Below are positions 29,635 to 45,786 of a stretch of DNA of 48,264 nt, piece by piece. The first letter of the stretch is position 1. Each line of letters begins with the position of its first letter. The position numbers and the translations under genes are program-made. Source of the DNA: an uncultured Candidatus Saccharibacteria bacterium (GTDB taxonomy: Bacteria; Patescibacteriota; Minisyncoccia; Phycocordibacterales; UBA5272); contig CAYGDF010000001.1 of the NCBI GenBank assembly GCA_964348675.1, positions 7,199 to 55,462 on the forward strand. Direction: 5' to 3'. The notes under the pieces were generated by a model, which searched no databases, was not told the DNA's origin, and saw only the letters and a list, made by a program, of their open reading frames with translations.

Positions 29635-29991
29635 TTATCTGTAACCTTTCTTTTTAAAATCTAAGAACCCCCAAAGTGATAAAGCGGCCGTGAGTAGGGC
29701 GATAATATAAAAGTAATCCTCAAATGGTTGATTCAAAAAGTAAAACAAAATTGCGCCGATAGCAAAGCCGAACAGACCGACAATAATGTCCATAATTACA
29801 TTAACAGATGGCTCGATTATCTTGACAACCCATTCAAATGCTTCCCAAGCCATCAGTAGCAGGGCTGAAATAAAGAGTGCTGAAGTAATTTGATATCCCA
29901 GTTTGTAAAAAATGGCCACCAATAAAAATCCTGAAAGGAAATGTACCAAAGACCACATATCGACATATTTACCATGCTTCCAAATATCCAT
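29635..29991 (-). CDS. Small integral membrane protein
   Basis: 118 aa with four hydrophobic helices. Confidence 0.55.
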   Translation of the reverse strand: MDIWKHGKYVDMWSLVHFLSGFLLVAIFYKLGYQITSALFISALLLMAWEAFEWVVKIIEPSVNVIMDIIVGLFGFAIGAILFYFLNQPFEDYFYIIALLTAALSLWGFLDFKKKGYR

Positions 29992-30160
29992 AAGAGTTTA
30001 ATTATTTAAATAAAATAGGCTAAATTAGAAAGCGTAGTCTAATTATACCTTGAAAGTAGGTAAAAAATCCAAAAAAATGTAAGAATTTTAACGGTTTTCC
30101 GTCATCTATATTGGGTACACAGCACCCTTTGGTAATTATAAAAACTAATCTATACATAAT

Positions 30161-31048: not shown

Positions 31049-31060
31049 TAAAAGTTAAAT

Positions 31061-31095
31061 AATAAATAAACCGCCTATCAGGCGGTTTATTTATT
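31061..31095. terminator. Bidirectional hairpin terminator
   Basis: aaataaaccgcc-tatca-ggcggtttattt. Confidence 0.75.
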
Positions 31096-31130
31096 ATTTA
31101 AGAAATGCCTTGTTCCTACTTGAAATTGAT

Positions 31131-31541
31131 TTATTTTACTTCTTCCAAATTCCCATTTATCACGATAGGGGAGAAGCCGATGATTTCATCTTTTAGTATT
31201 CCTTCTGGAACAGGATTATACAAATAAACCTTTTTTCCTAATCTAAAAGCATCATACATTTCTAGAAAAGTAGCTCCACCGATATAATTTGCAACACCCT
31301 TCTTTTCGAAATTCAAAACCAAAACCGCGTCCATATCGTTTATGACGTCTGTGCTATGTTTTAACATTCCCGCTTTCCATTTTGCATGTTCGTCAACACC
31401 TAGATTTCTAAACTCATCTTCCGCGAGCGGATTATCGTATGAATTGGGTAGCGTTATCTCGTGACCAGCAGATTCCAGTTGATTTTTAATTTCGGGAATT
31501 CTATCGTAAAAACTTTTACTGCAAATAAGAAAAATCTTCAT
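31131..31541 (-). CDS. Nucleoside 2-deoxyribosyltransferase-like protein
   Basis: MKIFLICSKSFYDRIPEIKNQLESAGHEITLP start, plus DAVLVLN...YIGGATFLEMYDAFRLGKKVY. The family call is recall-level. Confidence 0.45.
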   Translation of the reverse strand: MKIFLICSKSFYDRIPEIKNQLESAGHEITLPNSYDNPLAEDEFRNLGVDEHAKWKAGMLKHSTDVINDMDAVLVLNFEKKGVANYIGGATFLEMYDAFRLGKKVYLYNPVPEGILKDEIIGFSPIVINGNLEEVK

Positions 31542-31566
31542 GGAATAACTACTAAAGTGCTACAAA

Positions 31567-31824
31567 CTATTTATGGTTACTAAACAATTCTGAAACTTTC
31601 AACTTTGCGAATCCGAATAGATAAATAATTTCTAAGATACCAGCAGTGTTAATCAAAAGCATGGCGACGAACCACCAAACTTGTCCACGTCTTCCAGAGT
31701 GCCAAAGTGCTAGACCTTTCCAAATGAGACCCCAGATCATCATAAGCATAAATAATCCGCCAAAAGCAGGTAACCATGAATACATAGAACCGTTTGTTGT
31801 AAAATAATTTAGATTTTGCATCAT
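31567..31824 (-). CDS. DUF5652-like small membrane protein
   Basis: WKGLALWHSGRRGQVWWFVAMLLINTAGILEIIYL. Confidence 0.55.
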   Translation of the reverse strand: MMQNLNYFTTNGSMYSWLPAFGGLFMLMMIWGLIWKGLALWHSGRRGQVWWFVAMLLINTAGILEIIYLFGFAKLKVSELFSNHK

Positions 31825-31892
31825 ATATGTTTTTATAACTTAATAATATTAAGTATATACCACTTATCTTTTCTTTGGTATTCTAATCTTAT

Positions 31893-32141
31893 ATGACAGA
31901 ACGAATTTCTGGTGGCGTTGTACATAAACTCCCTAAAGATCTGCGGGATATGATTATCGCTACGCCAAAGGTAAAACTACTGTGGGAGGATATAACACCT
32001 CTGGCTCGCAACGAGTGGATATGTTGGGTTGAGGAAGCCAAGCAAGAAAAGACCAGAAAAGGACGCATTGAAAAGACTCGTTCAAAAATGTTAGGAGGGA
32101 TGAGACGTCCTTGTTGCTGGGCGGGGTGCACCCATAGGTAA
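31893..32141 (+). CDS. YdeI/OmpD-associated (OmdA-like) family protein
   Basis: LPKDLRDMIIATPKVKLLWEDITPLARNEWICWVEEAKQEKTRKGRIEKT. I prefer it to the antisense ORF 31889..32131. Confidence 0.6.
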   Translation: MTERISGGVVHKLPKDLRDMIIATPKVKLLWEDITPLARNEWICWVEEAKQEKTRKGRIEKTRSKMLGGMRRPCCWAGCTHR

Positions 32142-32168
32142 GTGCGGTAGAAGTTTCAGAAACTGATG

Positions 32169-32744
32169 TTATTTCGAAACAATTTCAAAAGTTGGACTAG
32201 TTAGACTTCCTATTTGGAACTCGTATATACCTGGTTTTATATTTGTAGGGATAGTGTAAGTGTAGGCGTGCTTATTTTCGATTCCGTAGACTCTGTCTGA
32301 AATACTTACCGATGAGCCCTCATCTTTAAGCGAAACATCAATTAGAAATATCTGTGTAGTTTCTTCGCGCCCACCAGTCCATGTGAGCTGATAACTTTGT
32401 CCCTGAACTAATTTTTCTCCGCCTTTTGGAAAAGTTATCGAGTTTTCAGCACGAAAGTAAAATAGTGCGAAAAAAGCAACCAATACCACAACAGCCAGGT
32501 AACCAACCATTTTCATAAAATAGATGAGTGCTTCTTTTTTATGATTGTCGAAATAAAGTTTAAACGGTTGATAGAAAAACAGAAATGCCATGACCGCGGC
32601 AGAAAGTGTAAAGAGACTAAGTAGGAATATAGGGGCAAGTATGGTATCAGGAGTATTAGGTGATTGTAAAGAATAAATAATACCAACAACTACCAAGATA
32701 TAAGCAACTACACCTAACGCATTTATAAAGGGGTTTATTTTCAT
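32169..32744 (-). CDS. Membrane protein with a C-terminal Ig-like (Kre9/KNH-like) domain
   Basis: Four TM helices, then ITFPKGGEKLVQGQSYQLTWTGG. Confidence 0.5.
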   Translation of the reverse strand: MKINPFINALGVVAYILVVVGIIYSLQSPNTPDTILAPIFLLSLFTLSAAVMAFLFFYQPFKLYFDNHKKEALIYFMKMVGYLAVVVLVAFFALFYFRAENSITFPKGGEKLVQGQSYQLTWTGGREETTQIFLIDVSLKDEGSSVSISDRVYGIENKHAYTYTIPTNIKPGIYEFQIGSLTSPTFEIVSK

Positions 32745-32811
32745 ATGTGTTTAGTGTACACCCAATACCAAAAAGAATAAAAAACTTAAATCTAAGGTAA
32801 ATTAGGCTTTT

Positions 32812-33390
32812 TTATTGAGCAATGCGAATACTATCTCTTACTTGCACAAAGTCTTGGATGATTGGGGAACCCATTTCTAAATACGTAACCGTCGCCACAT
32901 ACACCCACGAAGGTAACGCCGTAACGATAGTCGTACCTTCATATAGACCAGACCACCTATATGATAAGGCAGGGAAGTTGCTAAGTGTGGTTGAGGCTAA
33001 GTTGCCGTCTGATAATTTAAAATTTGATTCACTAGTGTTACGAATCCAATTTTCTGTTGTTTGATTATCTAGATTATTCTGATAAATCTCAACCGTAATC
33101 GACTGAGGTCCTTCTCCTCCAACAGGAGCGGGTAAATCTTCACTACGCATTAAATTAATAATGTGGTGTTTACGCATTCCACTACCCGGTGCCTCTATTT
33201 CATTTAAGACGTAGTTTTTCGGGTAGGTAAAAGATATACCGTAGACATCGCTTGAATAAGTCTGACTGGATGAATCAATCAGAGGAGTTTGTGGAAAGAA
33301 AATACGCTGTGTTAAGAAAAATCCGCCAACTAAAATTAGAACTACTAAAAATCCAATTGTTCTTCCGATGAAAAATTTTCTAAGAGTCAT
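32812..33390 (-). CDS. Membrane-anchored hypothetical protein
   Basis: N-terminal TM (IGFLVVLILVGGFFL). 192 aa. Confidence 0.5.
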   Translation of the reverse strand: MTLRKFFIGRTIGFLVVLILVGGFFLTQRIFFPQTPLIDSSSQTYSSDVYGISFTYPKNYVLNEIEAPGSGMRKHHIINLMRSEDLPAPVGGEGPQSITVEIYQNNLDNQTTENWIRNTSESNFKLSDGNLASTTLSNFPALSYRWSGLYEGTTIVTALPSWVYVATVTYLEMGSPIIQDFVQVRDSIRIAQ

Positions 33391-33556
33391 ATGCTTAGAG
33401 TTTAACGCAAAAAATGTGAAAAGAAAGGTATTGGGGGGGTTAAAACTCGAACAATATCTAACCTCTCCATAAGTAGAGGGGGTATTTGCGATTAACTTAT
33501 TAATAATGTAATGTTTGTTGTATATCTTGTCCTTTTAACATTTGGGAGATTCAATC

Positions 33557-34582
33557 GTGGACTTACCAATCGAAGAATACTACGCTCACGCTCTCCAGAT
33601 GCACGAGCGCGAGTTACAAATACGCGACGAAATTGTTGGGTGGTTGCCCGACGACATCATCGACGCTCACGCTCACTGCAACCTGAAGGAACATGTACAT
33701 GGTGTAGACCCGCGAGCTCGCGGCCATATGCTGTCGACTTTCCCGTATTTCCCACTCGAAATGTCGAAGCAACTTCATGAGATGTTCTTTCCTGGCAAGC
33801 GGATTCGTTCGCTTCGCTTTCCGAAAACATTTCGTGGAATTGACCACCGTTCCGCCAACCAGTATCTGCTTCAGAACAGCCCTGAAGAAGACCGGATCGC
33901 ACTCTTTGGTTTACCGGAAGATGTTGCGTACACCAACGCTATGCTGGCCCATCCGAGAGTGTCCGCACTTAAGATGTACTGGTCGTACGTAGACCCAACG
34001 GCAAAGACAATCTACGAGTTCTTCAGGCCAGAAATCCTTGAAGAGAGTCAAGCGCGTGACATTCCAATAGTCCTCCATCTGCCGCGAGTTTTAGTGGCAA
34101 GCATCAACGACTTGGTGCAAGTCGTAAAAGACTTTCCGCGACAGAGAGTGGTCTTGGCTCACCTTGGCTTGTCCAAGATGGTTATTCAGGGACTGGAGGA
34201 GACAATGAAAACGGCGGCGGCCTTTGACAACGTTTTCATGGACACGGCACTTAACCCTTCGGCAGAAGTTGTCTCGCTCGCACTTAAATGTTTCGGTAAG
34301 GAGCGAATTCTGTTTGGTTCTGACGAACCTCTCAGCCTGATTCGTTCGGTCGCGTACAGACACCCGCAAAAAGGGGAGCGAATCGTCACTGACTTCAAGT
34401 ACCACTGGGTGGACAGCGACGAGGTCAGGGAATACGGGCATCTCGCCCAAAGTGCGACGCACGCTCACTGGCAGTCGATGTTGGCGATAAAGAGGGCTGT
34501 GGAACTTCTTCCTCGAGACCAACAAGAAGTTACCAAGGATTGGGTTTTTCGGAAAACCGCCGAGGCCGTGTATAACTTCTAG
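33557..34582 (+). CDS. Amidohydrolase_2-type metal-dependent hydrolase (TIM barrel), with compositionally foreign GC
   Basis: IDAHAHCN, PIVLHLPR, VLAHLG and FGSDEP motifs. The GTG at 33557 is preceded by GGGAGA 7 nt upstream; the track start is TTG at 33542. Two sampled lines give about 52-53% GC. Confidence 0.7.
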   Translation: MDLPIEEYYAHALQMHERELQIRDEIVGWLPDDIIDAHAHCNLKEHVHGVDPRARGHMLSTFPYFPLEMSKQLHEMFFPGKRIRSLRFPKTFRGIDHRSANQYLLQNSPEEDRIALFGLPEDVAYTNAMLAHPRVSALKMYWSYVDPTAKTIYEFFRPEILEESQARDIPIVLHLPRVLVASINDLVQVVKDFPRQRVVLAHLGLSKMVIQGLEETMKTAAAFDNVFMDTALNPSAEVVSLALKCFGKERILFGSDEPLSLIRSVAYRHPQKGERIVTDFKYHWVDSDEVREYGHLAQSATHAHWQSMLAIKRAVELLPRDQQEVTKDWVFRKTAEAVYNF

Positions 34583-34603
34583 AGACCACTGACCAATAGT
34601 TTT

Positions 34604-34631
34604 AAAGGCTTCGCGTGCGAGGCCTTTTTTT
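34604..34631. terminator. Hairpin terminator
   Basis: aaaggcttcgc-gtg-cgaggccttttttt, between the convergent amidohydrolase and HIT genes. Confidence 0.7.
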
Positions 34632-35097
34632 ATTGTTCTCCTTTAATTTTCTTAGCGAGAGCGCTAAGTTTTTCGTCGTCAGCTCTTAAAAAATCGTGCG
34701 AAGATATGTATCCTTCGTACTTATCAAAATACTTACTTACATTTGACGAACGCTTCTCCCAATCATTTGCCCTAGTTCCATGCATTGGAAATAATTTTGC
34801 ATGAATATGATCAACACCAAAACCTTCAAAGATCATACCTGTGCGACCAACGTCTTCTAATTTTTCATCTAAAAGTTTTGCAACTTTTTTTGTAGCATGC
34901 ACCAAACCATCAATTACACCATCCTCTAAATCAAACAAATAACTGCCATGGTGTTCTTTTGTTATCACGACCGAAAAACCTTCCGTGTTAGGAAATATAG
35001 AGAGAAAAGCAAGATGCTTATCGTCCTCCCAAATTTTATGGCAAGGCGCGTCTCCTTTGGCTATTTTGCAAAAAATACAATCTTCTTTGGTTGTCAT
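34630..35097 (-). CDS. HIT-family protein with a variant triad
   Basis: N-terminal CIFCKI, plus the HIT region GVDHIHAKLFP (H-I-H-A-K, where the canonical third His is Lys). Low GC like the host background. Confidence 0.7.
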   Translation of the reverse strand: MTTKEDCIFCKIAKGDAPCHKIWEDDKHLAFLSIFPNTEGFSVVITKEHHGSYLFDLEDGVIDGLVHATKKVAKLLDEKLEDVGRTGMIFEGFGVDHIHAKLFPMHGTRANDWEKRSSNVSKYFDKYEGYISSHDFLRADDEKLSALAKKIKGEQ

Positions 35098-35206
35098 AAC
35101 CTTATTATAATAGTCTTGTATAAAAAAAGAAAGTCTGGAACATTTATAGTCCAGACCTCGTTCGCTTTGCAGTTTTCCAACTACTTCTCTTTTTAAGACA
35201 AACCCG

Positions 35207-36007
35207 TCAGAGGTTTCGGCTGATTTTCTTTTTTATTGTGTAAATTCCTCCACGAGGAATTTGAAGCATCAGCCTCTCATCTCCCGCCGGTATCTTTCTG
35301 TACACCTTGACGAAATAACTCAGATATTTACCGTTTTCATTGAATAAAGATAGATATCTAAGCCAATTACTTCTGGTGTCTGGGGACATCTGGTTAATGT
35401 ACTGATCAACTCTTGTCTTGTCACCAGGGGAGACCTCATAGTCAGCCTCGTACTCTGTGGTGAGTGGAAGGTTGTTGAACAAATTCGACCAGCTTGCCCT
35501 GTCTCCTTGGGGAGTCAAATTTGTGCCAATTGTTTCGTTGAAATCAGCGACAAGTTTTGGGGGCGGAGTGGAATGGTAGTAGTAAAGCGCTACCAGCATA
35601 TACCCCCACGGTCTCAGCACACGCAACGCCTCAGCAATATGCTGTTTCCTTATTTCTTCGGGAATAAAAGGAAGATGCCCGCCTATGACAACATGACTGA
35701 AGGAATTGTCCTTGAAGGGTAAGTTAGACGCATCTCCCTTCTCGAAAGAAACCTTGTCTGCGATAAAGCGATCAACGTTTTCCTTGGCGGACCTGACGCT
35801 TTCTTCATGAAGGTCCACACCGACACATCTTGCCCCTGTGTAGCGTGCCATTTCGATGGTTATGAACCCCGTTGAACAACCCACCTCGAGAACCGTAGAG
35901 TTTTCGTACATAAAGGAATTCATGGCCCATTCCTTCACGGTCACGTAGCTCCCAGGGGGTGTATTGACTTGGCCAGACCTTGCAACAGTAGACAGATACT
36001 CATTCAT
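35207..36007 (-). CDS. Class I SAM-dependent methyltransferase
   Basis: Motif I VLEVGCSTGFITIEMA and motif II-like CVGVDL. I prefer the ATG at 36007 because AGAGG lies 7 nt upstream; the longer ORF starts at 36058. One sampled line gives about 47% GC. Confidence 0.7.
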   Translation of the reverse strand: MNEYLSTVARSGQVNTPPGSYVTVKEWAMNSFMYENSTVLEVGCSTGFITIEMARYTGARCVGVDLHEESVRSAKENVDRFIADKVSFEKGDASNLPFKDNSFSHVVIGGHLPFIPEEIRKQHIAEALRVLRPWGYMLVALYYYHSTPPPKLVADFNETIGTNLTPQGDRASWSNLFNNLPLTTEYEADYEVSPGDKTRVDQYINQMSPDTRSNWLRYLSLFNENGKYLSYFVKVYRKIPAGDERLMLQIPRGGIYTIKKKISRNL

Positions 36008-36099
36008 TGGATGACCTCTATAAGAAGTTGAAAGAACACGATTTCTATTAGACCACATAAATCATGTTATTATATAAAATGAGATAAAGCCAACTAGAC

Positions 36100-36483
36100 A
36101 TGCAAAAAAAACCTTATAGACCATTTCAAATATCTTGTGGTTTGATGGAAGGCTACGATGCAGAAACAGCCACCTCTCATACCATTGAAGAAGCAAGTGT
36201 AATTATTCAAAACTGGATTAGGGACAGAGTCGTCTCTAATAAAAAGGTGGTGGCTGGGACTCTAATAGAAGGTCAATTTATTTACCCAATAAATAAAAAT
36301 CAAAACCTCAGCGCTCAAATTGAACCATCTTTCCATTATAAAGGAATTGTAAGAGAAGACACCTCTGACGAAGAGGCACTGGAGTTGCTAGAAGATTTAG
36401 TAAAAAATTTATCACAAAAATTAAATCAAAAAAGAATACATATTCAGTTTTGTTCTGATTATTTTTTGTTTGAAAAAGAATAA
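36100..36483 (+). CDS. Hypothetical protein
   Basis: 127 aa, low GC, no recognised motif. Confidence 0.45.
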   Translation: MQKKPYRPFQISCGLMEGYDAETATSHTIEEASVIIQNWIRDRVVSNKKVVAGTLIEGQFIYPINKNQNLSAQIEPSFHYKGIVREDTSDEEALELLEDLVKNLSQKLNQKRIHIQFCSDYFLFEKE

Positions 36484-36486
36484 AAA

Positions 36487-36512
36487 AACTGGGGCAACTA
36501 GGGCCCCAGTCT
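36487..36512 (-). terminator. Rho-independent terminator of the GC-rich aaRS operon
   Basis: On the minus strand the stem CTGGGGC/GCCCCAG is followed by TTTTTTT. It abuts the stop codon of the low-GC gene 36100..36483. Confidence 0.7.
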
Positions 36513-36531
36513 CGACTCAGCCCGCTGGCAT

Positions 36532-37839
36532 TTACGGCGTGAGCCGGTTCATGCCACGGTAGAGGTAGGTGACTTCACGCACGTTCGGACGTCCGAGCAT
36601 GATCATCAGCAGTCGCGTCAGACCGATGCCACAGCCACCGTGCGGAGGACATCCGTAGCGGAAAAAGTTGAAGTAGTGCTCGAGCGGACCGTGGCTGAAA
36701 CCGCGGTCGGTGGCCTGAGCCTTCAGCTTTTCGTAACGATGCTCGCGCATCGCACCCGTCGTGATTTCGATTCCGTTCCACAGCAAATCGAAACTCATCG
36801 TCAGGTCAGGGCGATCTTCATGCCGCATGTGGTAGAACGCTCGCACCTCGGTCGGGTAATCGGTCACGAAAACGAATTCGTGACCGAACTCTTCCTTGAT
36901 GTAGGCGCTCAGCATGCGCTCGCCTTGTGGGTCGAGATCCTCCTTGTGGTTGATGAAGTGCCCGCGTTCCGCCAACACCTCCCGCGCCCGTGCCAACGTG
37001 ATGCGCGGGAAAGGAGTTGTCGGCACCACCACGTTGACTTGAAAGGCCTCCTTGATGGCTTCACCGTGCTTGGCGGCAACGATTGCCATCATGTGCCCGA
37101 TCCAGTTCTCCTCCACCTGCATGACGTCCTCGTGGGATTCGATCCACGAGATTTCCATGTCGACGGAAGTGAACTCGGTGTCATGCCGTGACGTCATCGA
37201 CGGGTTCGCCCGGAAAACCGGGCCGATCTCGAAGATGCGGTCGAAGCCGGCGGCCATCGCCATCTGCTTGTAGAACTGCGGCGACTGGGCGAGATTGGCT
37301 GTCCGGCCGAAGTACGGCAAGGTAAACAACTCCGCGCCGGACTCACTCGCCGTGCCCATCAGCTTCGGGGAGTGGATTTCCAGGAACCCTTCCTTCTCCC
37401 AGAATCCCCGCATGGCGATTTCCATCGTGGTTTGCACCTGGAAGATCAGCAGGTTCTTGGGCTCGCGCAAACTGAGTTGGCGCCAGTCCATCTGCTTCTC
37501 GAGCGAGGATTCCGCGGTGACCGGAAGCGGGGCTTCCGCGACACTGTGGACTTCCACGGACCCGACTTGAATCTCCAGGCCGCCCAACTTCACGTTGGGC
37601 GCTTCGACGACGAGCCCCTTCACCGTCACGGCTGAACCAGGTGTCAGTCCGCTGATGATCGATGAAAGGGCGGCGCCCTCGTCACTCTTCGGATGCACGG
37701 CCTGCACCTTTCCGGTGCGGTCTTGCAAGATGAGGAACTGCATCCGTTTCTGGTCGCGGACGGCGTCCACGAAACCTTTCACGGAAACAACTTCTCCGAG
37801 GCAGCCACTCAGGCTGCAAATCCAAGTTCTCTGTTTCAT
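36532..37839 (-). CDS. Class IIb aminoacyl-tRNA synthetase, archaeal-type AspRS-like
   Basis: N-terminal OB fold (GFVDAVRDQKRMQFLILQDRTGKVQAV). Motif 2 is GPVFRANPSMTSRHDTEFTSVDMEISW, with Asn where the fRxE Glu is usual. Motif 3 is GGCGIGLTRLLM. GGAG lies 6 nt before the ATG. About 60% GC. Confidence 0.75.
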   Translation of the reverse strand: MKQRTWICSLSGCLGEVVSVKGFVDAVRDQKRMQFLILQDRTGKVQAVHPKSDEGAALSSIISGLTPGSAVTVKGLVVEAPNVKLGGLEIQVGSVEVHSVAEAPLPVTAESSLEKQMDWRQLSLREPKNLLIFQVQTTMEIAMRGFWEKEGFLEIHSPKLMGTASESGAELFTLPYFGRTANLAQSPQFYKQMAMAAGFDRIFEIGPVFRANPSMTSRHDTEFTSVDMEISWIESHEDVMQVEENWIGHMMAIVAAKHGEAIKEAFQVNVVVPTTPFPRITLARAREVLAERGHFINHKEDLDPQGERMLSAYIKEEFGHEFVFVTDYPTEVRAFYHMRHEDRPDLTMSFDLLWNGIEITTGAMREHRYEKLKAQATDRGFSHGPLEHYFNFFRYGCPPHGGCGIGLTRLLMIMLGRPNVREVTYLYRGMNRLTP

Positions 37840-37859
37840 GACTTTCTCCGGTAACTGAA

Positions 37860-39176
37860 TTAAGGGTAGACCCGGCGACGCACCACTCGTGGGAATGGAA
37901 TAGCGTCACGGACGTGGGGGATGTTGAGCAACCAACGAATCAGCCGTTCGAGTCCCATGCCGAAGGCGATATGGGGAACGCAACCGGCGTGATGAACATC
38001 GCGGACAAACTGATACCTCGGTTCGGTGAGCTTGCCCTTTTCGTCGAGCCGCTCGTCCAGCATCTTCGGATCGTGGATTTTCTCCGCGACGCCCAACAGT
38101 TCTCCGTAGCCATTGCTGGCGATCAGATCGGCCACCATCGTCACTCGCGTGTCGTTGGGGTCAATCACGTACGGGAACGGCTCGACGGCTCGTGGTATTC
38201 CCACAATCCAGAAGGGGCTCTTGTAAAGCTTGGACAGGATTTCTTCCTCAGACGTGCTGAGGGCTTGTCCGAACTTTGCGTCGAGACCCTGCTCTTGCAG
38301 ATACTTCACGGCATCCTCGTACGAAATGCGCGGGAAGGGCGTTTTCAGCCCATCCAGGCATAACTGGGTGCCGAGCGTGCTCATGATGCCAGGGCATCGT
38401 GCCTGGCATTCTGTGGTCACGTAGCCGAGGATGTCTTCCACCAGTTTGATGATGTCCTCACGGTTCCCGAAAGCGACCTCGGCCTTGATGTGCCAGTACT
38501 CCATGAGGTGGCGCTTGCTCCGCGACTCTTCACCACGGAAGCTAGGCCCCATGTTGAAGATCCGTTCGAAGGCATGCACTCCGGCCTCCAGGTAGAAGCC
38601 GGCACACTGGGAGAGGAACAGGTTCTCATCGTGCACGTTGATCGACATCGCTGTCTTTCCGTCGTAGAGCGGTGTCGGCGTGAGGATCGGCGCATCGAAT
38701 TCCATGAAGCGGTTCTTGTAAAACCACTCACGGACGATACGCATCAACTCAGCACGAAACTGGAGAACCGCCATCACCTTCGGGTTGCGAAGATAGATGT
38801 GCCGGTAGTCGAGCATCTGGTTCGTGTGACGTTCGTCAAACGGATCGAAGTTCGACCGTGGCTGAGGTTCCAGCCGAAGCGTGGCCTTACCCAGCACCGC
38901 AAAGTTACTTGCGTGGAGTTCGTTCTCTTGCCCGTTTCGCCGAGAAAGGTTTCCGTGTATCTCGACACCCGACTCGAGCGGCACCGTTGACGCCAGGTCA
39001 AATTCATCTTCAGAAATCGAGGACTTCTGGATGACGACCTGGATGGTGCCAGTTGAGTCGGAAATATCGAGAAAGATTATTTTTCCTTGTCGCCTCCGAT
39101 GTTTGAGCCACCCCATAAGAGTAGCTGCCCCACCAGGATTCGCAGCAAGGAAGTCGGTAACAAAGAGCGTCTTCAT
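37860..39176 (-). CDS. Class IIb aminoacyl-tRNA synthetase, AsnRS-like
   Basis: OB fold (GWLKHRRRQGKIIFLDISDSTGTIQVV). Motif 2 is GPSFRGEESRSKRHLMEYWHIKAEVAF. The C-terminus is VPHIAFGMGLERLIRWLLNIPHVRDAIPFPRVVRRRVYP, an AsnRS-type ending. It lies 20 nt upstream of the AspRS-like gene. About 62% GC. Confidence 0.75.
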   Translation of the reverse strand: MKTLFVTDFLAANPGGAATLMGWLKHRRRQGKIIFLDISDSTGTIQVVIQKSSISEDEFDLASTVPLESGVEIHGNLSRRNGQENELHASNFAVLGKATLRLEPQPRSNFDPFDERHTNQMLDYRHIYLRNPKVMAVLQFRAELMRIVREWFYKNRFMEFDAPILTPTPLYDGKTAMSINVHDENLFLSQCAGFYLEAGVHAFERIFNMGPSFRGEESRSKRHLMEYWHIKAEVAFGNREDIIKLVEDILGYVTTECQARCPGIMSTLGTQLCLDGLKTPFPRISYEDAVKYLQEQGLDAKFGQALSTSEEEILSKLYKSPFWIVGIPRAVEPFPYVIDPNDTRVTMVADLIASNGYGELLGVAEKIHDPKMLDERLDEKGKLTEPRYQFVRDVHHAGCVPHIAFGMGLERLIRWLLNIPHVRDAIPFPRVVRRRVYP

Positions 39177-39426
39177 GTCACTTTCCTTCCATTGGTTAAC
39201 ATGGGCGACATGCCCGACTTGATACTACAATCATAATCGCACTTTGTCAAAAAAATATTTAATCAAAAATCGAGTAAAATAACACGTATTTCAATCAGAA
39301 ATATCAATTTATTTTCATAAAAATATATCACTAAAATTGTGTGACAGCTCTCTGAAAAAGTTGGAACAAATTTATAAATAGGATAGGATACAACCATCTG
39401 TTCGTCATAAAACAAGGAGTAAAGTT

Positions 39427-39672
39427 ATGGTCTACAAGACCGTCCCGCAATTGGGCATCACGATTTCCGTGAAGCCCTATCGAAAAAGCCGTGGAATGAA
39501 AGGCTGTGGACGTGTAGGAAGCACTGGCAAGAAAGCCTACATCACAAAAGCAGGGGAGGAGACGGTCACCATCAAGGGTGACTCGTTCAAACACCTCTGC
39601 CAGCAGATTCGTGAGCAGTTCAAGATTCCGCCGAGTGTCACCATCAACTCCTCGGGCGAGACCTACGTCTGA
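39427..39672 (+). CDS. Small basic hypothetical protein (81 aa), GC-rich, divergent from the aaRS operon
   Basis: AAGGAG lies 7 nt before the ATG, and the gene has its own terminator. MVYKTVPQLGITISVKPYRKSRGMKGCGRVGSTGKKAYITK... I recognise no family. Confidence 0.65.
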   Translation: MVYKTVPQLGITISVKPYRKSRGMKGCGRVGSTGKKAYITKAGEETVTIKGDSFKHLCQQIREQFKIPPSVTINSSGETYV

Positions 39673-39689
39673 GTCAGTCCGCCATCGCC

Positions 39690-39719
39690 AAAAAAGCCCG
39701 TTTCGGCGGGCTTTTTTAT
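39690..39719 (+). terminator. Rho-independent terminator
   Basis: aaaaaagcccg-tttcgg-cgggctttttt. Confidence 0.8.
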
Positions 39720-39769
39720 TTGGTAAAAGTTGGGACGAAGTTGAAACAGAATTAGTAAGAAATTCTTGC

Positions 39770-40027
39770 TTAGTTTAGTGGGTAGATTTTATTAAGTTCA
39801 GGTTCTTCGGGGTACTCAGCGTGATGCTCTTTTACGTCTTTCCAGTCTATTGCATTTATAACGGCATCACCTGTACAACCTTCGTATGGACACATTTGTA
39901 ATACATCATCCATTTCTGAAGTCATTACATGCTTAAAATTACCACTTTTATAAACTCTTTCACAGTGCATACAATACAAATAACCATTACCACTTACCTT
40001 CCCAAAAATATATTCTCTCTCATTCAT
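39770..40027 (-). CDS. Small zinc-ribbon-like protein
   Basis: CMHC ... CPYEGC (CxxC plus CxxxxC). 85 aa, low GC. Confidence 0.5.
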   Translation of the reverse strand: MNEREYIFGKVSGNGYLYCMHCERVYKSGNFKHVMTSEMDDVLQMCPYEGCTGDAVINAIDWKDVKEHHAEYPEEPELNKIYPLN

Positions 40028-40067
40028 TTTTTTAAGTATATTAAACTATCAATTTTTAATAAAAAGC

Positions 40068-40631
40068 TCACTTCTTTGATGAACTCTTCTTAGGTTCTAG
40101 GTTTTTAAAAAGTTCAGGGAACATTATAGGCATTTCTCTGTTGAAAGTAATTGTGTGCTCTTCATTAAATTCCGTAAGATCATGTTCAAGCTTTGCAACC
40201 AGTTCAGCTGTAGTTTTTCCTCTTTTTCTTTTTACCATTTCTTCCACTATAAAACCCTTCATATGTCCTCCTAGTTTGTATGCTTTTTTTATTTCATTAA
40301 TAAAAGATTTCCTATCAATTTTTAAGATGTTGTGTATTACTTCGTTTCGTTTTTTTCTATAGATATTCAGGTTGCTGTATAATTTTCGGTCAATCTTTCC
40401 TAAAAGGAAAAGTTCGTCGGAAATTCTTGCAATTTCAAAAGTAGAAAACTTACTTTTTAGTTCTGGTATTTTTTCTAAATGAGCACTAAGAACTTCCATC
40501 GCATAATTTTTAATAACGCCCTCTATTACACATGACTGTACTAAAAAGGCATCCAAATAGCGTTTATTTTTGTAGGCATTTTCAGCCATATCCACTAAAT
40601 ATCTATAGTTTTTTGAGTCTGATGTTCCCAT
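40068..40631 (-). CDS. All-helical protein with a HEPN-like Rx4H motif
   Basis: RKKRNEVIHNIL contains R-N-E-V-I-H. 187 aa, helical and charged. The family call is inference. Confidence 0.4.
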   Translation of the reverse strand: MGTSDSKNYRYLVDMAENAYKNKRYLDAFLVQSCVIEGVIKNYAMEVLSAHLEKIPELKSKFSTFEIARISDELFLLGKIDRKLYSNLNIYRKKRNEVIHNILKIDRKSFINEIKKAYKLGGHMKGFIVEEMVKRKRGKTTAELVAKLEHDLTEFNEEHTITFNREMPIMFPELFKNLEPKKSSSKK

Positions 40632-40679
40632 ACTTATTATATTATCACTTAATAGGGTCGGGACTGTCTTTAAAGTTGC

Positions 40680-40707
40680 TTGACTTTTTATCTACATGTA
40701 ATATACT
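40680..40707 (+). promoter_or_regulatory. Putative sigma70-type promoter of the higB operon
   Basis: TTGACT (40680-40685), a 16-nt spacer, then TATACT (40702-40707). The imperfect palindrome cttcccactatgggag follows. Confidence 0.4.
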
Positions 40708-40749
40708 TCCCACTATGGGAGTAAATACATTTGTATCAAAACCACCCAC

Positions 40750-41040
40750 ATGATTATGCAACTAATTGGCAAAGAAATCTTAGGCACCTTCAAAAACGAG
40801 CATTCTGATGCTCAGTCGCAAATTGACTCCTGGATTTCAGAAGTTGAAGCGGCTACTTGGAGGGTCCCACAAGATGTTGGCAAGAGATTCAAGGCAGACT
40901 TCCCAGGCAATAACCAGATTATATTTGATATTTGTTGGAATAAATATCGAATATGGGTCAAAGTTACCTATAAAAGTGGAATTGTTATTGTTAAGTCAGT
41001 AGGAACTCATAAAGAGTACGATAAGTGGAAATTCAAATAA
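40750..41040 (+). CDS. higB: HigB-family type II toxin (RelE/ParE superfamily)
   Basis: FPGNNQIIFDICWNKYRIWVKVTYKSGIVIVKSVGTHKEYDKWKF matches the HigB_toxin pattern. 96 aa. Confidence 0.7.
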   Translation: MIMQLIGKEILGTFKNEHSDAQSQIDSWISEVEAATWRVPQDVGKRFKADFPGNNQIIFDICWNKYRIWVKVTYKSGIVIVKSVGTHKEYDKWKFK

Positions 41041-41044
41041 ATAT

Positions 41045-42268
41045 ATGAATGATATAAAAATAATTAAAAATCAAGAAGACTATCGTAACGCTCTCAATTT
41101 TGTCGAGCAGATTATTGATCGTGATCCAGAACCTGGAACTGTGGACTCTGATCATCTTATTCTTCTTACTGCACTCATAAAAGAGTATGAATCAAAAGCT
41201 TATCCAGAACATTTGCCTGACCCAATAGAAGCAATAAAATTTCGCATGGAACAACAAAATCTTAAACCTGCGGATCTTATACCTTACATTGGTAGTGCAG
41301 GTAGAGTTTCTGAAGTGCTTTCTGGAAAGAGACAGCTTACCCTTGATATGGTTAGGGCTCTTTCTTCAGGCTTGGGAATTCCAGCAAAAGTACTTATACA
41401 AAAACCGTCGCGAGATTTTGAATCTCAAAATTGGGATACCACGCTTGTAAAGACAATGCAGAAACGCGGTTATTTCGGCAAAAACTCTTTAAAAGATCAA
41501 AATAAATCAGAACTAATTAGTGGTTTCTTTTCTTCATTTGGACAACTCCAACCCGCCGCTTTATACCGAAAAACAAATTTTCGATCAGCACCTCGTACAG
41601 ATAATAATGCTCTACTTGCATGGGGTATTCGTGTGTTGGAGAAAGCGTCTAAAATAAAAGTTTCCACAAAGTACAAAAAGGGAACAGTTGATTTATTTTT
41701 TATGCGTGCAGCAATAAAGTTAAGTTCAAAAGATAATGGGCCTCTTCTTGTCCGTGATTATCTCGAAGAGTATGGTATTAAATTAGTTATTGAGCCACAC
41801 CTCCCTAAGACTCATCTTGATGGTGCTGTCTTGCTGTTTGATAAAGATAATCCAGTGATAGGTCTTACAATCCGTCATGACCGACCAGATAATTTTTGGT
41901 TTACGTTAATGCATGAACTTGCTCACGTAGCGCTTCACTACGAGGATGACGTTGAATCCTTTTATGATGAAGGACTTCAAGATAAAGATGGTGTGGGAGA
42001 TGACCCTAAAGAAAAGGAAGCTGATCTTCTAGCAGAAGAGGCTATTCTTCCAAAAGGTAAATGGGAGACTAGTGCGGCAAGAACAACCCCGAATCAGTTT
42101 TCTACTGAAGACCTTGCAAATGAGTTGGGGATACAGACGGCTGTCATTGCAGGAATGATTCGATTTAAACATCAAAATTTTTACTATTTAAATAAGATAG
42201 TAAATGATAAAAACTTAACCATTAAAAAATATTTTAAAAATGACTTTTTAGAAGAAAAACATGACTAA
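41045..42268 (+). CDS. HigA-like XRE HTH fused to an ImmA/IrrE (M78) metallopeptidase domain
   Basis: An N-terminal HigA-type helix bundle plus HTH (LKPADLIPYIGSAGRVSEVLSGKRQLTLDMVRAL). The C-terminal HExxH is FTLMHELAHVALH. Confidence 0.75.
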   Translation: MNDIKIIKNQEDYRNALNFVEQIIDRDPEPGTVDSDHLILLTALIKEYESKAYPEHLPDPIEAIKFRMEQQNLKPADLIPYIGSAGRVSEVLSGKRQLTLDMVRALSSGLGIPAKVLIQKPSRDFESQNWDTTLVKTMQKRGYFGKNSLKDQNKSELISGFFSSFGQLQPAALYRKTNFRSAPRTDNNALLAWGIRVLEKASKIKVSTKYKKGTVDLFFMRAAIKLSSKDNGPLLVRDYLEEYGIKLVIEPHLPKTHLDGAVLLFDKDNPVIGLTIRHDRPDNFWFTLMHELAHVALHYEDDVESFYDEGLQDKDGVGDDPKEKEADLLAEEAILPKGKWETSAARTTPNQFSTEDLANELGIQTAVIAGMIRFKHQNFYYLNKIVNDKNLTIKKYFKNDFLEEKHD

Positions 42269-43394
42269 TATAATTAAACCTTATGTGCCTGTATTACGTT
42301 GGAGAGCTGCTGAGATGGCAGCAATGGAAAAACTGCTTCCTAACGATAGATCAAATGTTACACCCTTGATCGAGTTCATAATGCCAGCACCCTCAGTTGA
42401 TAAAAAGAATCGTAAAAAAATTTTAAAAACACCTAAAGAGAAGTTTTTAGAGACCCTGCCCAATGTGGCAAAAGATCTATCAAAGTCTTGCGGACAAAGC
42501 CCAGTATTCATTGATGTCCATCTCCTTGATGGTGACATTCGGTCATCTTCCCTTAATCAAATTCTCTCCTCATCAAGTGAACTTAATATATTCTCCATTC
42601 CTGTTACATATGTGATTCCAGTAACAAGTACAGACGCTGATACTGAAACGCGTTCGACTGCAATTAGTTATGCAAAGTCGAGTGGACATGGTTTATGTAT
42701 TCGCATAGATAATTCGCATCTTTCGGAGCCTGATTTAGCTTCTCATTTACTTCATTTTATTAAGAGTAACAATCTCGACATTAAAAATACTGACTTACTT
42801 GTTGATCTGCGATTCATTCCTGATATAGATACCAAAAAAGTAATTGATGAAATTGAAAAACTCCCAAATCTAAAAGAGTGGCGCTCCTTTATTGTGTCTG
42901 GAGGAGTTTTCCCTAAGGATTTGACTGAGTTCGCCGCCGGTGCAGCCTATTCACTTGATCGACTAGATTGGAAATTTTGGAATACAATACGTGAATCAAA
43001 AATAACTCGTGTCCCATCTTTCTCTGACTATACAATTCAGCACCCATTCTATGAATATGTGGCAGCTATTGGCAGTGCAAGTATAAGATATACGGCTGAT
43101 GACCAATGTTGGATTTTCAGAGGAACGAAGCCAGGATTAATTAATCGTAAAACTCAAGAAAAGGGCCCTGGGCGAGAGCAATATATTGGGCACGCAAAAA
43201 CTCTTGTAAAACGAGATTTTTACAAGGGAGATGGCTATAGTTTTGGTGATGCAGAAATTACGAGAATCGCTGACCCCTTAAATACAAAACCGGGTAGTCC
43301 TACTACATGGCTTACGATTGGTATTAACCACCATATAACGCTAGCTGCACGTCAGGCCTCCAACCTTCACGAGAACTCTGAAGAACAGATCTAA
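42261..43394 (+). CDS. Beta_protein (PF14350)/sce7725-like protein (recall-level)
   Basis: The N-terminus YVPVLRWRAAEMAAMEKL...VTPLIEF resembles the Beta_protein family start. It overlaps the upstream gene by 8 nt, so it belongs to the same operon. Confidence 0.4.
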   Translation: MTNIIKPYVPVLRWRAAEMAAMEKLLPNDRSNVTPLIEFIMPAPSVDKKNRKKILKTPKEKFLETLPNVAKDLSKSCGQSPVFIDVHLLDGDIRSSSLNQILSSSSELNIFSIPVTYVIPVTSTDADTETRSTAISYAKSSGHGLCIRIDNSHLSEPDLASHLLHFIKSNNLDIKNTDLLVDLRFIPDIDTKKVIDEIEKLPNLKEWRSFIVSGGVFPKDLTEFAAGAAYSLDRLDWKFWNTIRESKITRVPSFSDYTIQHPFYEYVAAIGSASIRYTADDQCWIFRGTKPGLINRKTQEKGPGREQYIGHAKTLVKRDFYKGDGYSFGDAEITRIADPLNTKPGSPTTWLTIGINHHITLAARQASNLHENSEEQI

Positions 43395-43929
43395 CATGTT
43401 TTTTTAGTGGTTCTAACTCTACTGATTCTGCAATCCTTGCATAGATAACCTCACGAGGTTTTGAACGGATACCATCCGCCTTACCTATGCTTTCTAGTAA
43501 ATCAAGTGCTTCATGTCTCCACAGAAGTCTAGCGATTGATTTATTGTCTTGAGCTGGATTATTTTTAGCCTCTCGAATTGTATTGAAGAAAATTCCACCG
43601 TTCTCACTAGTATGAGCTATTTCAACACCCCACCAATCAGGGATAATTTTAAATGCATCAACAAAGTGTCTACTGCCAACAACGAGGGTCACTTTATCAA
43701 AAACAGAATTATATGCCTCTCTTTGTTCAGGTAAGCGAAGTAGGGTGTCACGGTCGCTTTTGATTTCAAATCCGTGCAGTACTCCGTTTACAACAGCAAC
43801 ATCTATTCTCGCAGCTCCATGACAAAGACCCAACTCCGGAATTACACGATAGTCTGACTGCGCCACATACTCTTCTTTTAGTTTGCTTACTAGAGCTTCT
43901 CTTATTACTGTGTCGTTTGTTTGATACAT
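43324..43929 (-). CDS. PD-(D/E)xK-type nuclease-fold protein, sce7726/MmcB-like (recall-level)
   Basis: IPELGLCHGAARIDVAVVNGVLHGFEIKSDRD carries a D...E-x-K signature. Its 3' end overlaps the convergent gene by 71 nt. Confidence 0.45.
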   Translation of the reverse strand: MYQTNDTVIREALVSKLKEEYVAQSDYRVIPELGLCHGAARIDVAVVNGVLHGFEIKSDRDTLLRLPEQREAYNSVFDKVTLVVGSRHFVDAFKIIPDWWGVEIAHTSENGGIFFNTIREAKNNPAQDNKSIARLLWRHEALDLLESIGKADGIRSKPREVIYARIAESVELEPLKKHVRSVLQSSREGWRPDVQLALYGG

Positions 43930-44093
43930 CTTAATATATAAAAGAGAAATACGTATTTAAATTTTAACATACTTATGAACGCTAGGCATGTTAAAGTTAT
44001 CCCCGTATGACTGGTAACTACAAAATGAATATGTAAAACCTCGTTACCTTTGTAGCTTTTATTTCTTTAAATTTCGGCTTGCATTTTTCTTGC

Positions 44094-44306
44094 CTACAAT
44101 ACACTCTCATAACTATCGCTACTCGTACCGACAATATTTTTGTTATCACTTATTTGCATTAAAAATTGTTGTCGCACCAACTCATCTTTCTTCTCATTCT
44201 CCTTGTTCACTTGGTTAAAAAAATCTCTTCCAAAGAAACCAATCACAAAACTTGCACAAATAGAAAATATTACTAAAAGTGTAATGGCTATCTTATTAAA
44301 ATACAT
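44094..44306 (-). CDS. Small membrane-anchored protein
   Basis: N-terminal TM (IAITLLVIFSICASFVIGFF). I prefer it to the antisense ORF 44140..44424. Confidence 0.4.
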   Translation of the reverse strand: MYFNKIAITLLVIFSICASFVIGFFGRDFFNQVNKENEKKDELVRQQFLMQISDNKNIVGTSSDSYESVL

Positions 44307-44420
44307 CGCAAGGTTTTTAATATTAATAACTGGGGTAGCAAAACACTGCCCTGGAATAGGAACCTTGCGAGTAACCCACTCCGAGTGGCGGAGCTTTTAT
44401 CGCAAGATATTAGAATTTGT

Positions 44421-44603
44421 TTAAATGAAAAGCAATAGACCTCCAACTACAATCATAGGTATTCCTATTACCGCTCCAACGAACGTGAAGCAAAGAAGAG
44501 TACCGAGAATAGCAAATAATAGACCTATTGTTTTTCTAATCGGTTTTAAATATAAAGCCAAAGCCAACAAGATAATACCTATGAGCGCGACCAAAGTTTC
44601 CAT
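44421..44603 (-). CDS. Small two-TM membrane protein
   Basis: 60 aa, two hydrophobic helices. I prefer it to the antisense ORF 44425..44607. Confidence 0.4.
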   Translation of the reverse strand: METLVALIGIILLALALYLKPIRKTIGLLFAILGTLLCFTFVGAVIGIPMIVVGGLLLFI

Positions 44604-44635
44604 ATAAAGTTCAGTATATGTCTAGTTTATTTTTA

Positions 44636-44658
44636 GTACAAGGAGTCTCGGTCATAAA
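44636..44658. repeat. Direct repeat, left boundary of the methyltransferase/HNH cassette
   Basis: GTACAAGGAGTCTCGGTCATAAA matches 46935..46957 (GTACAAGGAGTCTCGGTCACAAA) at 22/23. Confidence 0.8.
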
Positions 44659-44681
44659 CATCAGTTGTAAGGTAAGTACTT

Positions 44682-45785: not shown

Positions 45786-45786
45786 A

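Follow-up and report, generated by a model that had tools for sequence, protein, structure and literature searches.

A GC-rich pair of AspRS and AsnRS-like genes linked to microcin C-type hydrolases in Patescibacteria

What are two GC-rich synthetase genes doing side by side in a low-GC genome of the Patescibacteria, and are they the aspartyl- and asparaginyl-tRNA synthetases (AspRS and AsnRS) that they appear to be? The question is raised by a bicistronic operon in a 48,264-nt stretch of contig CAYGDF010000001.1, called the window throughout, which we compared with about 170 related loci (labelled L and a number). The operon consists of two class IIb synthetase genes on the minus strand with a spacer of 20 nt. 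The first-pass annotation of this DNA had singled out the pair as anomalous. The observation is real and more than chance, but the anomaly was misplaced onto the AspRS: it lies in the AsnRS-like product, here called AsnL, and in the neighbourhood that the two genes keep.

37860-39176, minus strand: asnL, encoding AsnL, 438 aa, first gene of the operon, with Pfam domains tRNA_anti-codon and tRNA-synt_2.
36532-37839, minus strand: aspS, 435 aa, second gene of the operon, with Pfam domains tRNA_anti-codon and tRNA-synt_2.

By their sequences both products belong to class IIb (Asp/Asn/Lys). An N-terminal OB-fold anticodon domain precedes a class II core, PF01336 and PF00152 score above gathering thresholds in both, and the motif-2 arginine and the motif-3 GxGxGxxR are present.

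The AspRS is the simpler case. It passes NF003483, the NCBIfam equivalog for archaeal-genre (GAD-less) AspRS (458.2 bits, cut-off 353), falls just below TIGR00458 (363.7 against 368.4) and has 3nel as its best PDB match (2.3e-95), with an end-to-end alignment to Thermococcus AspRS. The aspartate ligands are in place (SESGAELF, QSPQFYKQ, SVDMEISW and QREHR, the last within the aligned segment GAMREHR), gapless against 3NEL and invariant in the clade alignment. They comprise the side-chain ligands (the Lys of QSPQxxKQ, the Asp of xxDxE and the Arg of QREHR) and the alpha-amino ligands (the Glu of sEsGa and the Ser/Gln of QSPQ), and on this alignment the aspartate pocket is canonical. What had seemed anomalous was motif 2, which reads FRAN and thus departs from the fRxE glutamate pattern, and the C-terminus YLYRGMNRLTP. 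Both features are present, but neither is unusual: of the 120 closest homologues, 114 have FRAN, accompanied by a C-terminus that follows the pattern L/I-Y-R-G-P/M-N-R-L-x-P. When species-representative genomes were scanned, members of this clade turned up in Solirubrobacterales, Streptomyces/Kitasatospora, Micrococcales, Anaerolineae, Latescibacterota, Clostridia, Tenericutes and Patescibacteria. Depending on the lineage, Firmicutes and Tenericutes included, motif 2 has N, D or E (FRAN, FRAD or FRAE), and the C-terminus is shared. The acidic residue of class II motif 2 contacts N6 of adenine, and N or D could retain the hydrogen bond. Because the residue varies within the clade, we treat FRAN as a tolerated variant rather than as grounds for exclusion, and FRAN and LYRGxNRLTP, being common to the clade, are signatures of it and not anomalies of the window protein. 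Judged by these motifs, the aspS product is an ordinary member of a large bacterial KLGG/LYRGPNRLxP short-AspRS clade.

The L1 anticodon loop offers a hint at tRNA specificity. It reads ..NVKLGG.. (PNVKLGG) in the window AspRS, like ..KAKLG. (K85-L-G) in Thermococcus, where K85P mutagenesis reportedly concerned this lysine of a discriminating AspRS. Second AspRS copies in relatives, described below, carry ..QAPGG.. instead, as does the non-discriminating AspRS2 of T. thermophilus. In that enzyme Pro72 of the L1 loop has been implicated in the tolerance of U36 (10.64898/2026.05.03.722492). By analogy, this suggests that the operon AspRS may be discriminating.

AsnL had been taken for the normal one of the two proteins. 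It does keep FRGE and PFPR, and its best PDB match is the AsnRS 1x54 (2.6e-81), but it misses both asnS cut-offs (NF003037, 294.7 against 414; TIGR00457, 257.5 against 342.6), as do the AsnL proteins of the relatives L001 and L008. We read its pocket from an alignment to the P. horikoshii and T. thermophilus AsnRS, which is gapless between strongly conserved flanking motifs. In established class IIb structures the alpha-amino group is held by the Glu of vEGg and by the Ser and second Gln of QSxQ. All three are replaced in the window protein (E164->Y171, S185->C191 and Q187->G193, T. thermophilus to window), and so are the amide ligands (E225->K231 and R368->K366); Q367 has become E365 as well. 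E225 and R368 are the specificity contacts of AsnRS (listed as Glu-233 and Arg-377 in PMC7387524). Thus all five canonical asparagine contacts are substituted, the counted charge of the pocket shifts from -1 to +1, and the pattern is 100 % conserved in 118 close homologues. AsnL is therefore a divergent enzyme.

How sharply AsnL is set off from AsnRS is seen in a HMMER search that covered all 1.84 billion cluster representatives. The 26 AsnL-type representatives, down to about 31 % identity, all carry Y-C-(G/A/T/S)-K. The second lysine, at position 368, is present in 24 of them, and the other two have K at 225 and Phe at 368. Canonical AsnRS at 30-34 % identity to AsnL show E-S/T-Q-E-R. No intermediates between the two pockets were found among 50 representatives (to 31 % identity), so that the pattern is binary. 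Candidates for archaeal asparagine synthetase A among the short representatives turned out to be fragments of AsnRS or AsnL.

Outside the pocket much is kept. Equivalents of R208, E210, E360 and R412 (the motif-2 Arg and Glu, the Mg-binding Glu and the motif-3 Arg) are retained, and the F/Q/E core readers of the anticodon are invariant in the clade alignment, while the canonical RAPGG anticodon loop is absent or variable. From its sequence AsnL looks like an enzyme that would still bind ATP and a tRNA with a G34-U35 anticodon and whose amino-acid pocket has been rebuilt.

One explanation is that AsnL is a repurposed paralogue that adenylates something other than free L-asparagine, acting with the co-transcribed AspRS and a hydrolase in an undescribed pathway. 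We consider this possible, though the less probable outcome, and we hold its candidate substrates (acidic or N-blocked ones, such as aspartate via the beta-carboxyl, N-acyl-aspartate or a peptide C-terminal Asp) just as tentatively. The ligand changes are coordinated and invariant (E164->Y, S185->C, Q187->G/A/T, E225->K, R368->K and Q367->E), and the charge reversal, the lack of intermediates, the missed cut-offs and the missing or variable RAPGG loop all favour it, as does the tight operon linkage with AspRS and an adenylate hydrolase. However, AsnL has kept a full anticodon-binding domain with its readers, whereas synthetase paralogues that left tRNA charging, such as AsnA and EpmA, lack that domain. 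Its operon position also mirrors that of canonical AsnRS in Firmicutes, and no conserved acceptor lies beside the gene. Repurposing had been proposed for the pair as a whole; it applies to AsnL, the divergent member, if to either.

A small basic protein of 81 aa, divergently transcribed, had been put forward as the partner of such an enzyme. It occurs in the window only: phmmer, tblastx and blastn found no homologue across the related loci. Nor is its reading frame called as a gene in the public collection, and it is therefore not a conserved partner. A second small open reading frame (ORF) of about 90 aa (SSSPTAAYEM...AKAxRWLxxLRRDYP) lies just upstream of the AsnL start and overlaps it, and occurs in 10 loci only (for example L097:287-574 and L008:6904-7191); it has no Pfam match and is absent from the window.

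The neighbourhood of the pair is the second part of the finding. About 74 non-redundant loci with AsnL came out of lookups and two scans of the collection; the pair is present on more than 70 contigs of Patescibacteria, and asnL and aspS are adjacent in about 55 of the 60 loci with enough flank. When all neighbouring ORFs were clustered, the recurrent neighbours by locus count were HIT (22), Peptidase S51 (15), Amidohydro_2 (14), a histidine kinase (13), the ORF of about 90 aa (10) and Peptidase S66 (9). We tallied the hydrolases in the 40 non-redundant loci with at least 700 nt downstream: HIT only in 17, S51 only in 11, S66 only in 6, HIT with S66 in 1 and none in 5. In other words, 35 of the 40 informative loci have a HIT, S51 or S66 protein and two together are almost never seen. 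These are the families that act on microcin C, which in its processed form is an aspartyl-adenylate mimic inhibiting AspRS and is detoxified by MccH (HIT, PMC7157772), MccG (S51, PMC9239234) and MccF (S66).

34630-35097, minus strand: MccH-type HIT hydrolase (Pfam HIT), GC content at third codon positions (GC3) 0.28, motif EGFGVDHIHAKLF.

The motif ExxxxxHxHxKxx is present in all 22 HIT neighbours, the window HIT included. It is the signature of the MccH clade, in which the third His is replaced by Lys and a Glu stands five residues upstream (PMC7157772). The N-terminal catalytic-support His is replaced by Phe in the window protein (TEGFSVVI, where Hit of B. subtilis, 1Y23, has TKGHTLVI). The same Phe is found in 19 of the 22 HITs, and the three in which the pattern is unmatched include a truncated ORF. 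By both signatures the window HIT belongs to the MccH clade, and its hydrolytic function is predicted. An MccH homologue from Parcubacteria GWA2_40_37 protects E. coli from microcin C and one from DG_74_2 is inactive (PMC7157772). For the S66 neighbour, matches to MccF-like structures (1e-79 and 1e-35) are far better than the match to the murein LD-carboxypeptidase LdcA (1e-13), and the catalytic Ser/His motifs are intact in both S51 and S66 neighbours. In the literature searched we found no linkage between these hydrolase genes and AspRS genes, and the MccH test was the only link between microcin C and Patescibacteria.

Other neighbours recur as well. A sensor histidine kinase, often with a response regulator, lies 0.3-1.5 kb upstream of the pair in 13 loci (L001, L007, L110, L111, L113, L116, L132 and others), hinting at regulated expression of the module. 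Genes of the type found with ribosomally synthesized and post-translationally modified peptides or bacteriocins lie near the module in L001 (1828-5632 and 14558-21311; ThiF-like and nitroreductase-like genes, a C39 peptidase and ABC exporters) and in L008 (430-5158; two radical-SAM/SPASM genes). The Patescibacteria-type module also appears in L010, L011 and L021 on contigs titled 'Bdellovibrionales' or 'Bacteroidia', whose bins are probably mislabelled or contaminated.

It is conceivable that the two genes are nothing but housekeeping AspRS and AsnRS, that the hydrolases reflect conserved synteny or general aspartate/asparagine (Asx) and peptide metabolism, and that the GC content has no functional meaning. 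In favour of this, the pair is found widely and evolves under strong purifying selection, the AspRS has a canonical pocket, and both PGAP and JGI annotate the proteins as these synthetases; furthermore, Firmicutes place this type of AspRS beside a canonical AsnRS (L076, 640 bits on asnS). We nevertheless regard this reading as unlikely. It has to accommodate an AsnL pocket without any canonical asparagine contact and three near-exclusive alternative neighbours that are exactly the microcin C-detoxifying hydrolase families. Two further observations, a second AspRS in relatives and the clustering of polymorphism in the pair, speak against it and are described below.

In at least 15 loci a second AspRS, of the bacterial, APGG or long-loop type, is encoded no more than 10 kb from the pair. 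These copies are APGG-type in L001, L142-148, L151, L154 and L159, long-loop short-type in L007, L111, L115, L162 and L163, and bacterial-type in L110 and L116. Their GC3 is host-like, with median differences of -0.085 and about 0. A neighbour-joining tree, which carries no support values, places the APGG copies and some of the long-loop copies in a separate clade of Patescibacteria and Dehalococcoidales. In L110 (14898-16337) the bacterial-type AspRS beside the pair has only 479 aa and aligns with the 590-aa model in two separate segments, so that its GAD insertion domain may have been deleted. The first-pass annotation had named ordinary sole-copy synthetases in a well-sampled clade as a refuting outcome, and only half of this is borne out: the FRAN clade is well sampled, but the pair is often not the sole AspRS.

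Such second copies would be expected if the pair were antibiotic-insensitive duplicates, horizontally acquired like the mupirocin-resistant IleRS2, with a sensitive native AspRS elsewhere in the genome. A host-GC AspRS beside a GC-rich pair in many relatives, the foreign composition, the mosaic polymorphism and the link to hydrolases of microcin C immunity are all in line with this idea, which the first-pass annotation had listed as auxiliary or resistant copies. The motif-2 change from Glu to Asn, which falls in the adenylate site of class II enzymes, is a further point for it. FRAN, FRAD and FRAE, however, vary over whole phyla with no known link to resistance, a resistant AspRS is not described in the microcin C literature that we consulted, and no second AspRS is present in the 48-kb window. 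We therefore hold the duplicate explanation to be doubtful.

The base composition of the pair had been estimated by hand at 60-62 % GC. The pair is indeed GC-rich and compositionally foreign, although the measured values are slightly lower (0.593 for aspS and 0.560 for asnL). GC3 is 0.78 for aspS (z = 8.2) and 0.70 for asnL (z = 6.8) against a mean of 0.311 and a standard deviation of 0.057 in the 47 other genes of the window; serS, as had been noted, is host-like (0.33). The shift is equal in two-fold pyrimidine, two-fold purine and four-fold codons and involves G as much as C, which identifies it as a compositional signature. Translational selection was considered as its source and is ruled out by the same pattern. 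The compositional block is real but it is a mosaic: other GC-rich genes stand near the pair, and host-like stretches lie among them, including the HIT gene and the promoter region of the operon.

33542-34582, plus strand: Amidohydro_2 protein, GC3 0.59, a neighbour of the pair in 14 of 74 loci.
35207-36058, minus strand: S-adenosylmethionine-dependent methyltransferase, GC3 0.49, with a weak PCMT match among many generic ones.
36100-36483, plus strand: hypothetical protein of 127 aa, convergent with aspS, host-like (GC3 0.25), found at the same position in L132 and L169.
39427-39672, plus strand: 81-codon ORF, GC3 0.70, with an AAGGAG ribosome-binding site; its status as a gene is uncertain.

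The identity of the Amidohydro_2 protein to its relatives tracks that of the synthetase pair, and the methyltransferase gene neighbours the pair in 4 loci. Of the marks of a genomic island, deviant composition is present (GC3 z of 6.7-8.2); a contiguous block with an integrase and flanking repeats was not found, the region being a mosaic without att-like repeats around the block or a recombinase in the window. Large serine recombinases (Resolvase, Recombinase and Zn ribbon) do occur one or two genes from the module in L112 (493-2079), L117, L123 and L138.

We compared the GC3 of the pair AspRS with that of its flanks in 37 loci. The median difference is +0.11 and the maximum, +0.43, belongs to the window genome; the difference exceeds +0.1 in 20 loci and falls below -0.1 in one. 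In many lineages the pair has a GC3 of 0.6-0.8 beside genes of 0.3. High GC of the pair is thus a recurrent, family-wide trend in Patescibacteria, and this window is the extreme case of it.

A recent xenologous replacement had been offered for the pair, and a foreign history stands. That the genes arrived in one recent transfer, from a host or neighbour of high GC such as an actinomycetote, is nonetheless very improbable in our judgement. GC3 values of 0.70-0.78 against 0.31 would suit it, and Solirubrobacterales carry FRAN-type AspRS and are the nearest group outside the Patescibacteria in the neighbour-joining tree (without support values), where the pair-type AspRS cluster together with Solirubrobacterales adjacent. 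However, the closest relatives of both genes are Patescibacteria, with about 77 % amino-acid identity for AspRS and about 87 % for AsnL, compared to 60-66 % for Solirubrobacterales, and AsnL stands beside AspRS in none of the Solirubrobacterales loci examined. The host-like promoter region and HIT gene form a mosaic rather than one block with the pair, and dozens of lineages show a GC excess of this kind. A single transfer from a high-GC donor therefore does not fit.

A block of this composition could also be an artefact, and we checked the assembly across its borders. Two Logan contigs, from runs ERR3094302 and ERR3094292, match the window over 27704-37191 at 100 % and over 29541-37191 at 99.99 %, and both cross the junction from low to high GC at 36.49 kb and reach 660 bp into aspS. 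On the other side the same two runs match 39606-45393 and 39606-42298 at 100 %. An independent MEGAHIT assembly, the 50-kb ENA contig ERZ27247837, spans 29770-48264, that is the whole block with both flanks, with 11 mismatches. A chimera of a GC-rich fragment and a low-GC contig could be read from the ends of the Logan contigs at 37191 and 39606, but the junction-spanning assemblies from independent sources refute it, and the gene order recurs in L132 and L169; we consider the chance of a chimera negligible.

All 11 mismatches between the ENA contig and the window fall in two patches inside the pair, and about 16 kb of flanking sequence is identical.

37192-37279: polymorphic patch 1, 5 single-nucleotide polymorphisms (SNPs) in 88 bp.
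38517-38711: polymorphic patch 2, 6 SNPs in 195 bp.

Assuming mismatches spread uniformly over the 18.5-kb alignment, the probability that all 11 lie within the 2.6-kb pair is about 5e-10. The two Logan contigs that enter aspS stop at 37191, one base short of the first SNP. The alleles of the pair have a history different from that of their flanks. The Logan contigs of the two runs also begin or end together at 39606, where the ENA contig shows no SNP, and this shared end suggests a further population variant near 39.6 kb.

Taken together, these results lead us to favour, with about even confidence, a module that is exchanged laterally and joins the target of an antibiotic to the antidote. The module conserved across Patescibacteria has three parts: asnL, aspS and one interchangeable hydrolase, which may be an MccH-type HIT, an S51 or an MccF-like S66 protein. 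In this proposal aspS would encode a working short AspRS that charges tRNA-Asp, asnL would serve Asx decoding in a manner still to be defined, and the window HIT (34630-35097) would destroy aspartyl-adenylate mimics. Coupling of target and antidote would suit peptide-scavenging episymbionts exposed to Trojan-horse peptide-nucleotides. The synthetase genes would be swapped between lineages via homologous recombination, and such exchange would account both for the patchiness of the polymorphism and for a pair of about 59 % GC within a genome of 38 % GC. The SNP patches, the foreign codon usage and the serine recombinases that four relatives have beside the module accord with recurrent import through such recombination.

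Several points weigh against the exchanged target-antidote module. That AsnL supplies the asparagine side of Asx decoding is an assumption, given that it has lost both amide and all three alpha-amino ligands. The antidote role of the window HIT towards AspRS comes from a predicted function. Among the Pfam-scanned window genes there is no mcc biosynthetic cluster, that is no mccA (for a precursor ending in Asn), no ThiF-like MccB and no exporter, and a ThiF gene is seen only in the relative L001. S51, S66 and HIT proteins also have housekeeping roles, and the module may possibly reflect no more than shared Asx metabolism or co-regulation. The search for a donor lineage, by homologue searches and the neighbour-joining tree, places the pair in Patescibacteria but found no donor above 75 % nucleotide identity, the best match being 74-75 %. 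Finally, in one well-sampled sub-clade (clade A) HIT, AsnL and AspRS show equal pairwise divergence and the GC3 gap persists. This co-divergence argues against a simple recent transfer there, and together with the lasting gap it suggests that some force keeps the bias in place, such as GC-biased gene conversion in a hot spot of recombination; such a bias fits the sub-clade at least as well as repeated import. Over the wider set of loci, the HIT identity is 74-78 % in most, whatever the pair shows, and 56-66 % in a few.

We also entertain a bolder idea, rather improbable in our estimate: AsnL would not be an AsnRS at all but an unrecognised class IIb family that binds tRNA and activates a different acidic or N-blocked aspartyl-type substrate. 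With a dedicated AspRS and an aspartyl-adenylate hydrolase it would then make up, in Patescibacteria, a tRNA-linked pathway of a new kind or a defence against microcins. Examples, held with the same reserve, would be an alternative Asn-tRNA route that bypasses a poisoned step, or the neutralisation of peptidyl- or aspartyl-adenylates.

The locus matters in three ways. AsnL represents a deep and abundant subfamily annotated everywhere as "asparagine--tRNA ligase" despite the replacement of all asparagine-holding residues; either asparagine is recognised in a wholly different way or the genome-based synthetase inventories of Patescibacteria are wrong here. The gene for the target of microcin C is physically linked to all three known families of detoxifying hydrolases, used as alternatives, which makes it testable whether Trojan-horse peptide-nucleotides exert pressure on peptide-scavenging ultrasmall bacteria. 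And the pair, to which all polymorphism within 18.5 kb of otherwise clonal sequence is confined, offers a clean natural setting in which repeated import of alleles could be told apart from GC-biased gene conversion.

The remaining features of the locus bear out the operon as first described (two genes 20 nt apart, ribosome-binding sites, and a terminator of its own next to the stop of a low-GC gene), as confirmed by the ORFs and signals. GGAG lies within the spacer and GGAAGGA upstream of asnL.

39222-39250, minus strand: sigma-70-like promoter TTGACA-17-TAGTAT, a consensus match only, 46 nt upstream of the asnL ATG.
36485-36513, minus strand: intrinsic terminator closing the operon; its stem of 11 bp includes 6 G-C pairs and leads into a T run.

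The promoter site is located in the AT-rich intergenic region 39177-39426 (250 nt, GC 0.30), and the terminator starts 2 nt from the stop codon of the convergent gene 36100-36483. Rfam searches upstream of asnL, by gathering threshold and by E-value, gave chance-level matches only for a T-box or other leader, and no dedicated tRNA gene recurs beside the pair among 50 loci. Downstream of the 81-codon ORF lies a bidirectional hairpin terminator (about 39690-39716). The region of this ORF (39427-39725) folds moderately better than shuffles on both strands (z = -3.5 and -3.3), to which the terminator contributes a part; the ORF could be a remnant, an orphan gene or an RNA. The small ORFs have no PHROG match that would indicate a phage origin, and PADLOC, searched for anti-phage defence, returned only a marginal HIT match and a generic methyltransferase match.

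The rest of the window is typical chromosome (serS, dus, a holB-like gene, a Cu-ATPase and two tRNAs), with no gatCAB, asnA/B or further class IIb gene. Among named sequences, those closest to the SerRS, which is encoded in the low-GC part, belong to Parcubacteria/Paceibacteria (Zambryskibacteria, Taylorbacteria, "Patescibacteria group"), and unnamed relatives reach 87-90 % identity; judged by this protein, the host belongs to the Parcubacteria. Directly beside the block, 40750-46881 holds a run of mobile or defence-type genes: HigB toxin, M78/HigA-like, Beta_protein, P4 cII-like, GmrSD/HNH endonuclease and EcoRI-type adenine methylase. An alternative oxidase (PF01786, 236 bits) at 11189-11896 on the minus strand, beside serS, is unexpected in a Parcubacteria-type contig, since the lineage is usually described as fermentative. 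At the window end an ORF at 47463-47924, minus strand, is again GC-rich (GC 0.55, GC3 0.55, z = 4.1) and lies beside a tRNA-Gln at 47108-47179.

How does the pair compare with known systems? The window AspRS has the length and domain order of T. kodakarensis AspRS (3NEL/1B8A) and T. thermophilus AspRS2 (1N9W), with phmmer scores of 324 and 262 bits, and its Asp pocket (the Lys of QSPQ.YKQ, the D and the Arg of QREHR), motif-2 Arg and motif 3 are identical to theirs. These archaeal-genre AspRS have FRAE or WRME and FPRDRRRLTP where the window protein has FRAN and YLYRGMNRLTP, and its KLGG loop resembles that of Thermococcus rather than the APGG of the non-discriminating Thermus enzyme. The best structural-sequence relatives of AsnL are the canonical AsnRS 1X54 and 5ZG8 (277 and 249 bits). 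It shares with them the fold plan, FRxE motif 2, motif 3, the Mg-binding Glu, the YLE segment and the PFPR C-terminus, and differs in the five contact substitutions, the absence of the 'AP' of the RAPGG loop and the missed asnS equivalog cut-offs. Like AsnL, AsnA (archaeal asparagine synthetase A) and EpmA/GenX keep the class IIb core with changed contacts to the amino acid or acceptor, and AsnL weakly matches GenX and the NCBIfam model of asparagine synthetase A (143 bits, cut-off 368); unlike them it retains the anticodon-binding domain and the core readers.

The general concept of synthetase paralogues is described in PMC5388404. Thermus and Deinococcus have a discriminating AspRS1 with AsnRS, plus a non-discriminating archaeal-type AspRS2 with GatCAB (PMC4206432). 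The relatives L001, L142, L151, L154 and L159 resemble them in carrying the pair with a second AspRS of the APGG-loop type. In contrast to Thermus, GatCAB was seen in none of the loci (the loci only being covered), the 'AsnRS' pocket is non-canonical, and the three synthetase genes are clustered, two of them compositionally foreign. Like IleRS2 and mosaic pbp alleles, the pair has a foreign composition, a native counterpart in many relatives and short tracts of recombination within the target genes only; unlike those cases, the clade-A module co-diverges with its host-GC neighbour, and a lower sensitivity to any inhibitor is conjectural here. The closest parallel to the hydrolase part is the immunity of microcin C. 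The MccH work treats such hydrolase genes as 'standalone' and does not mention a linkage to AspRS (PMC7157772). The families of MccH, MccG and MccF are the ones that adjoin the pair, with the full MccH-clade motif in the HITs and S66 proteins nearer to MccF-like enzymes than to LdcA. The hydrolase genes here do not belong to an mcc cluster and are linked instead to the gene of the antibiotic's target.

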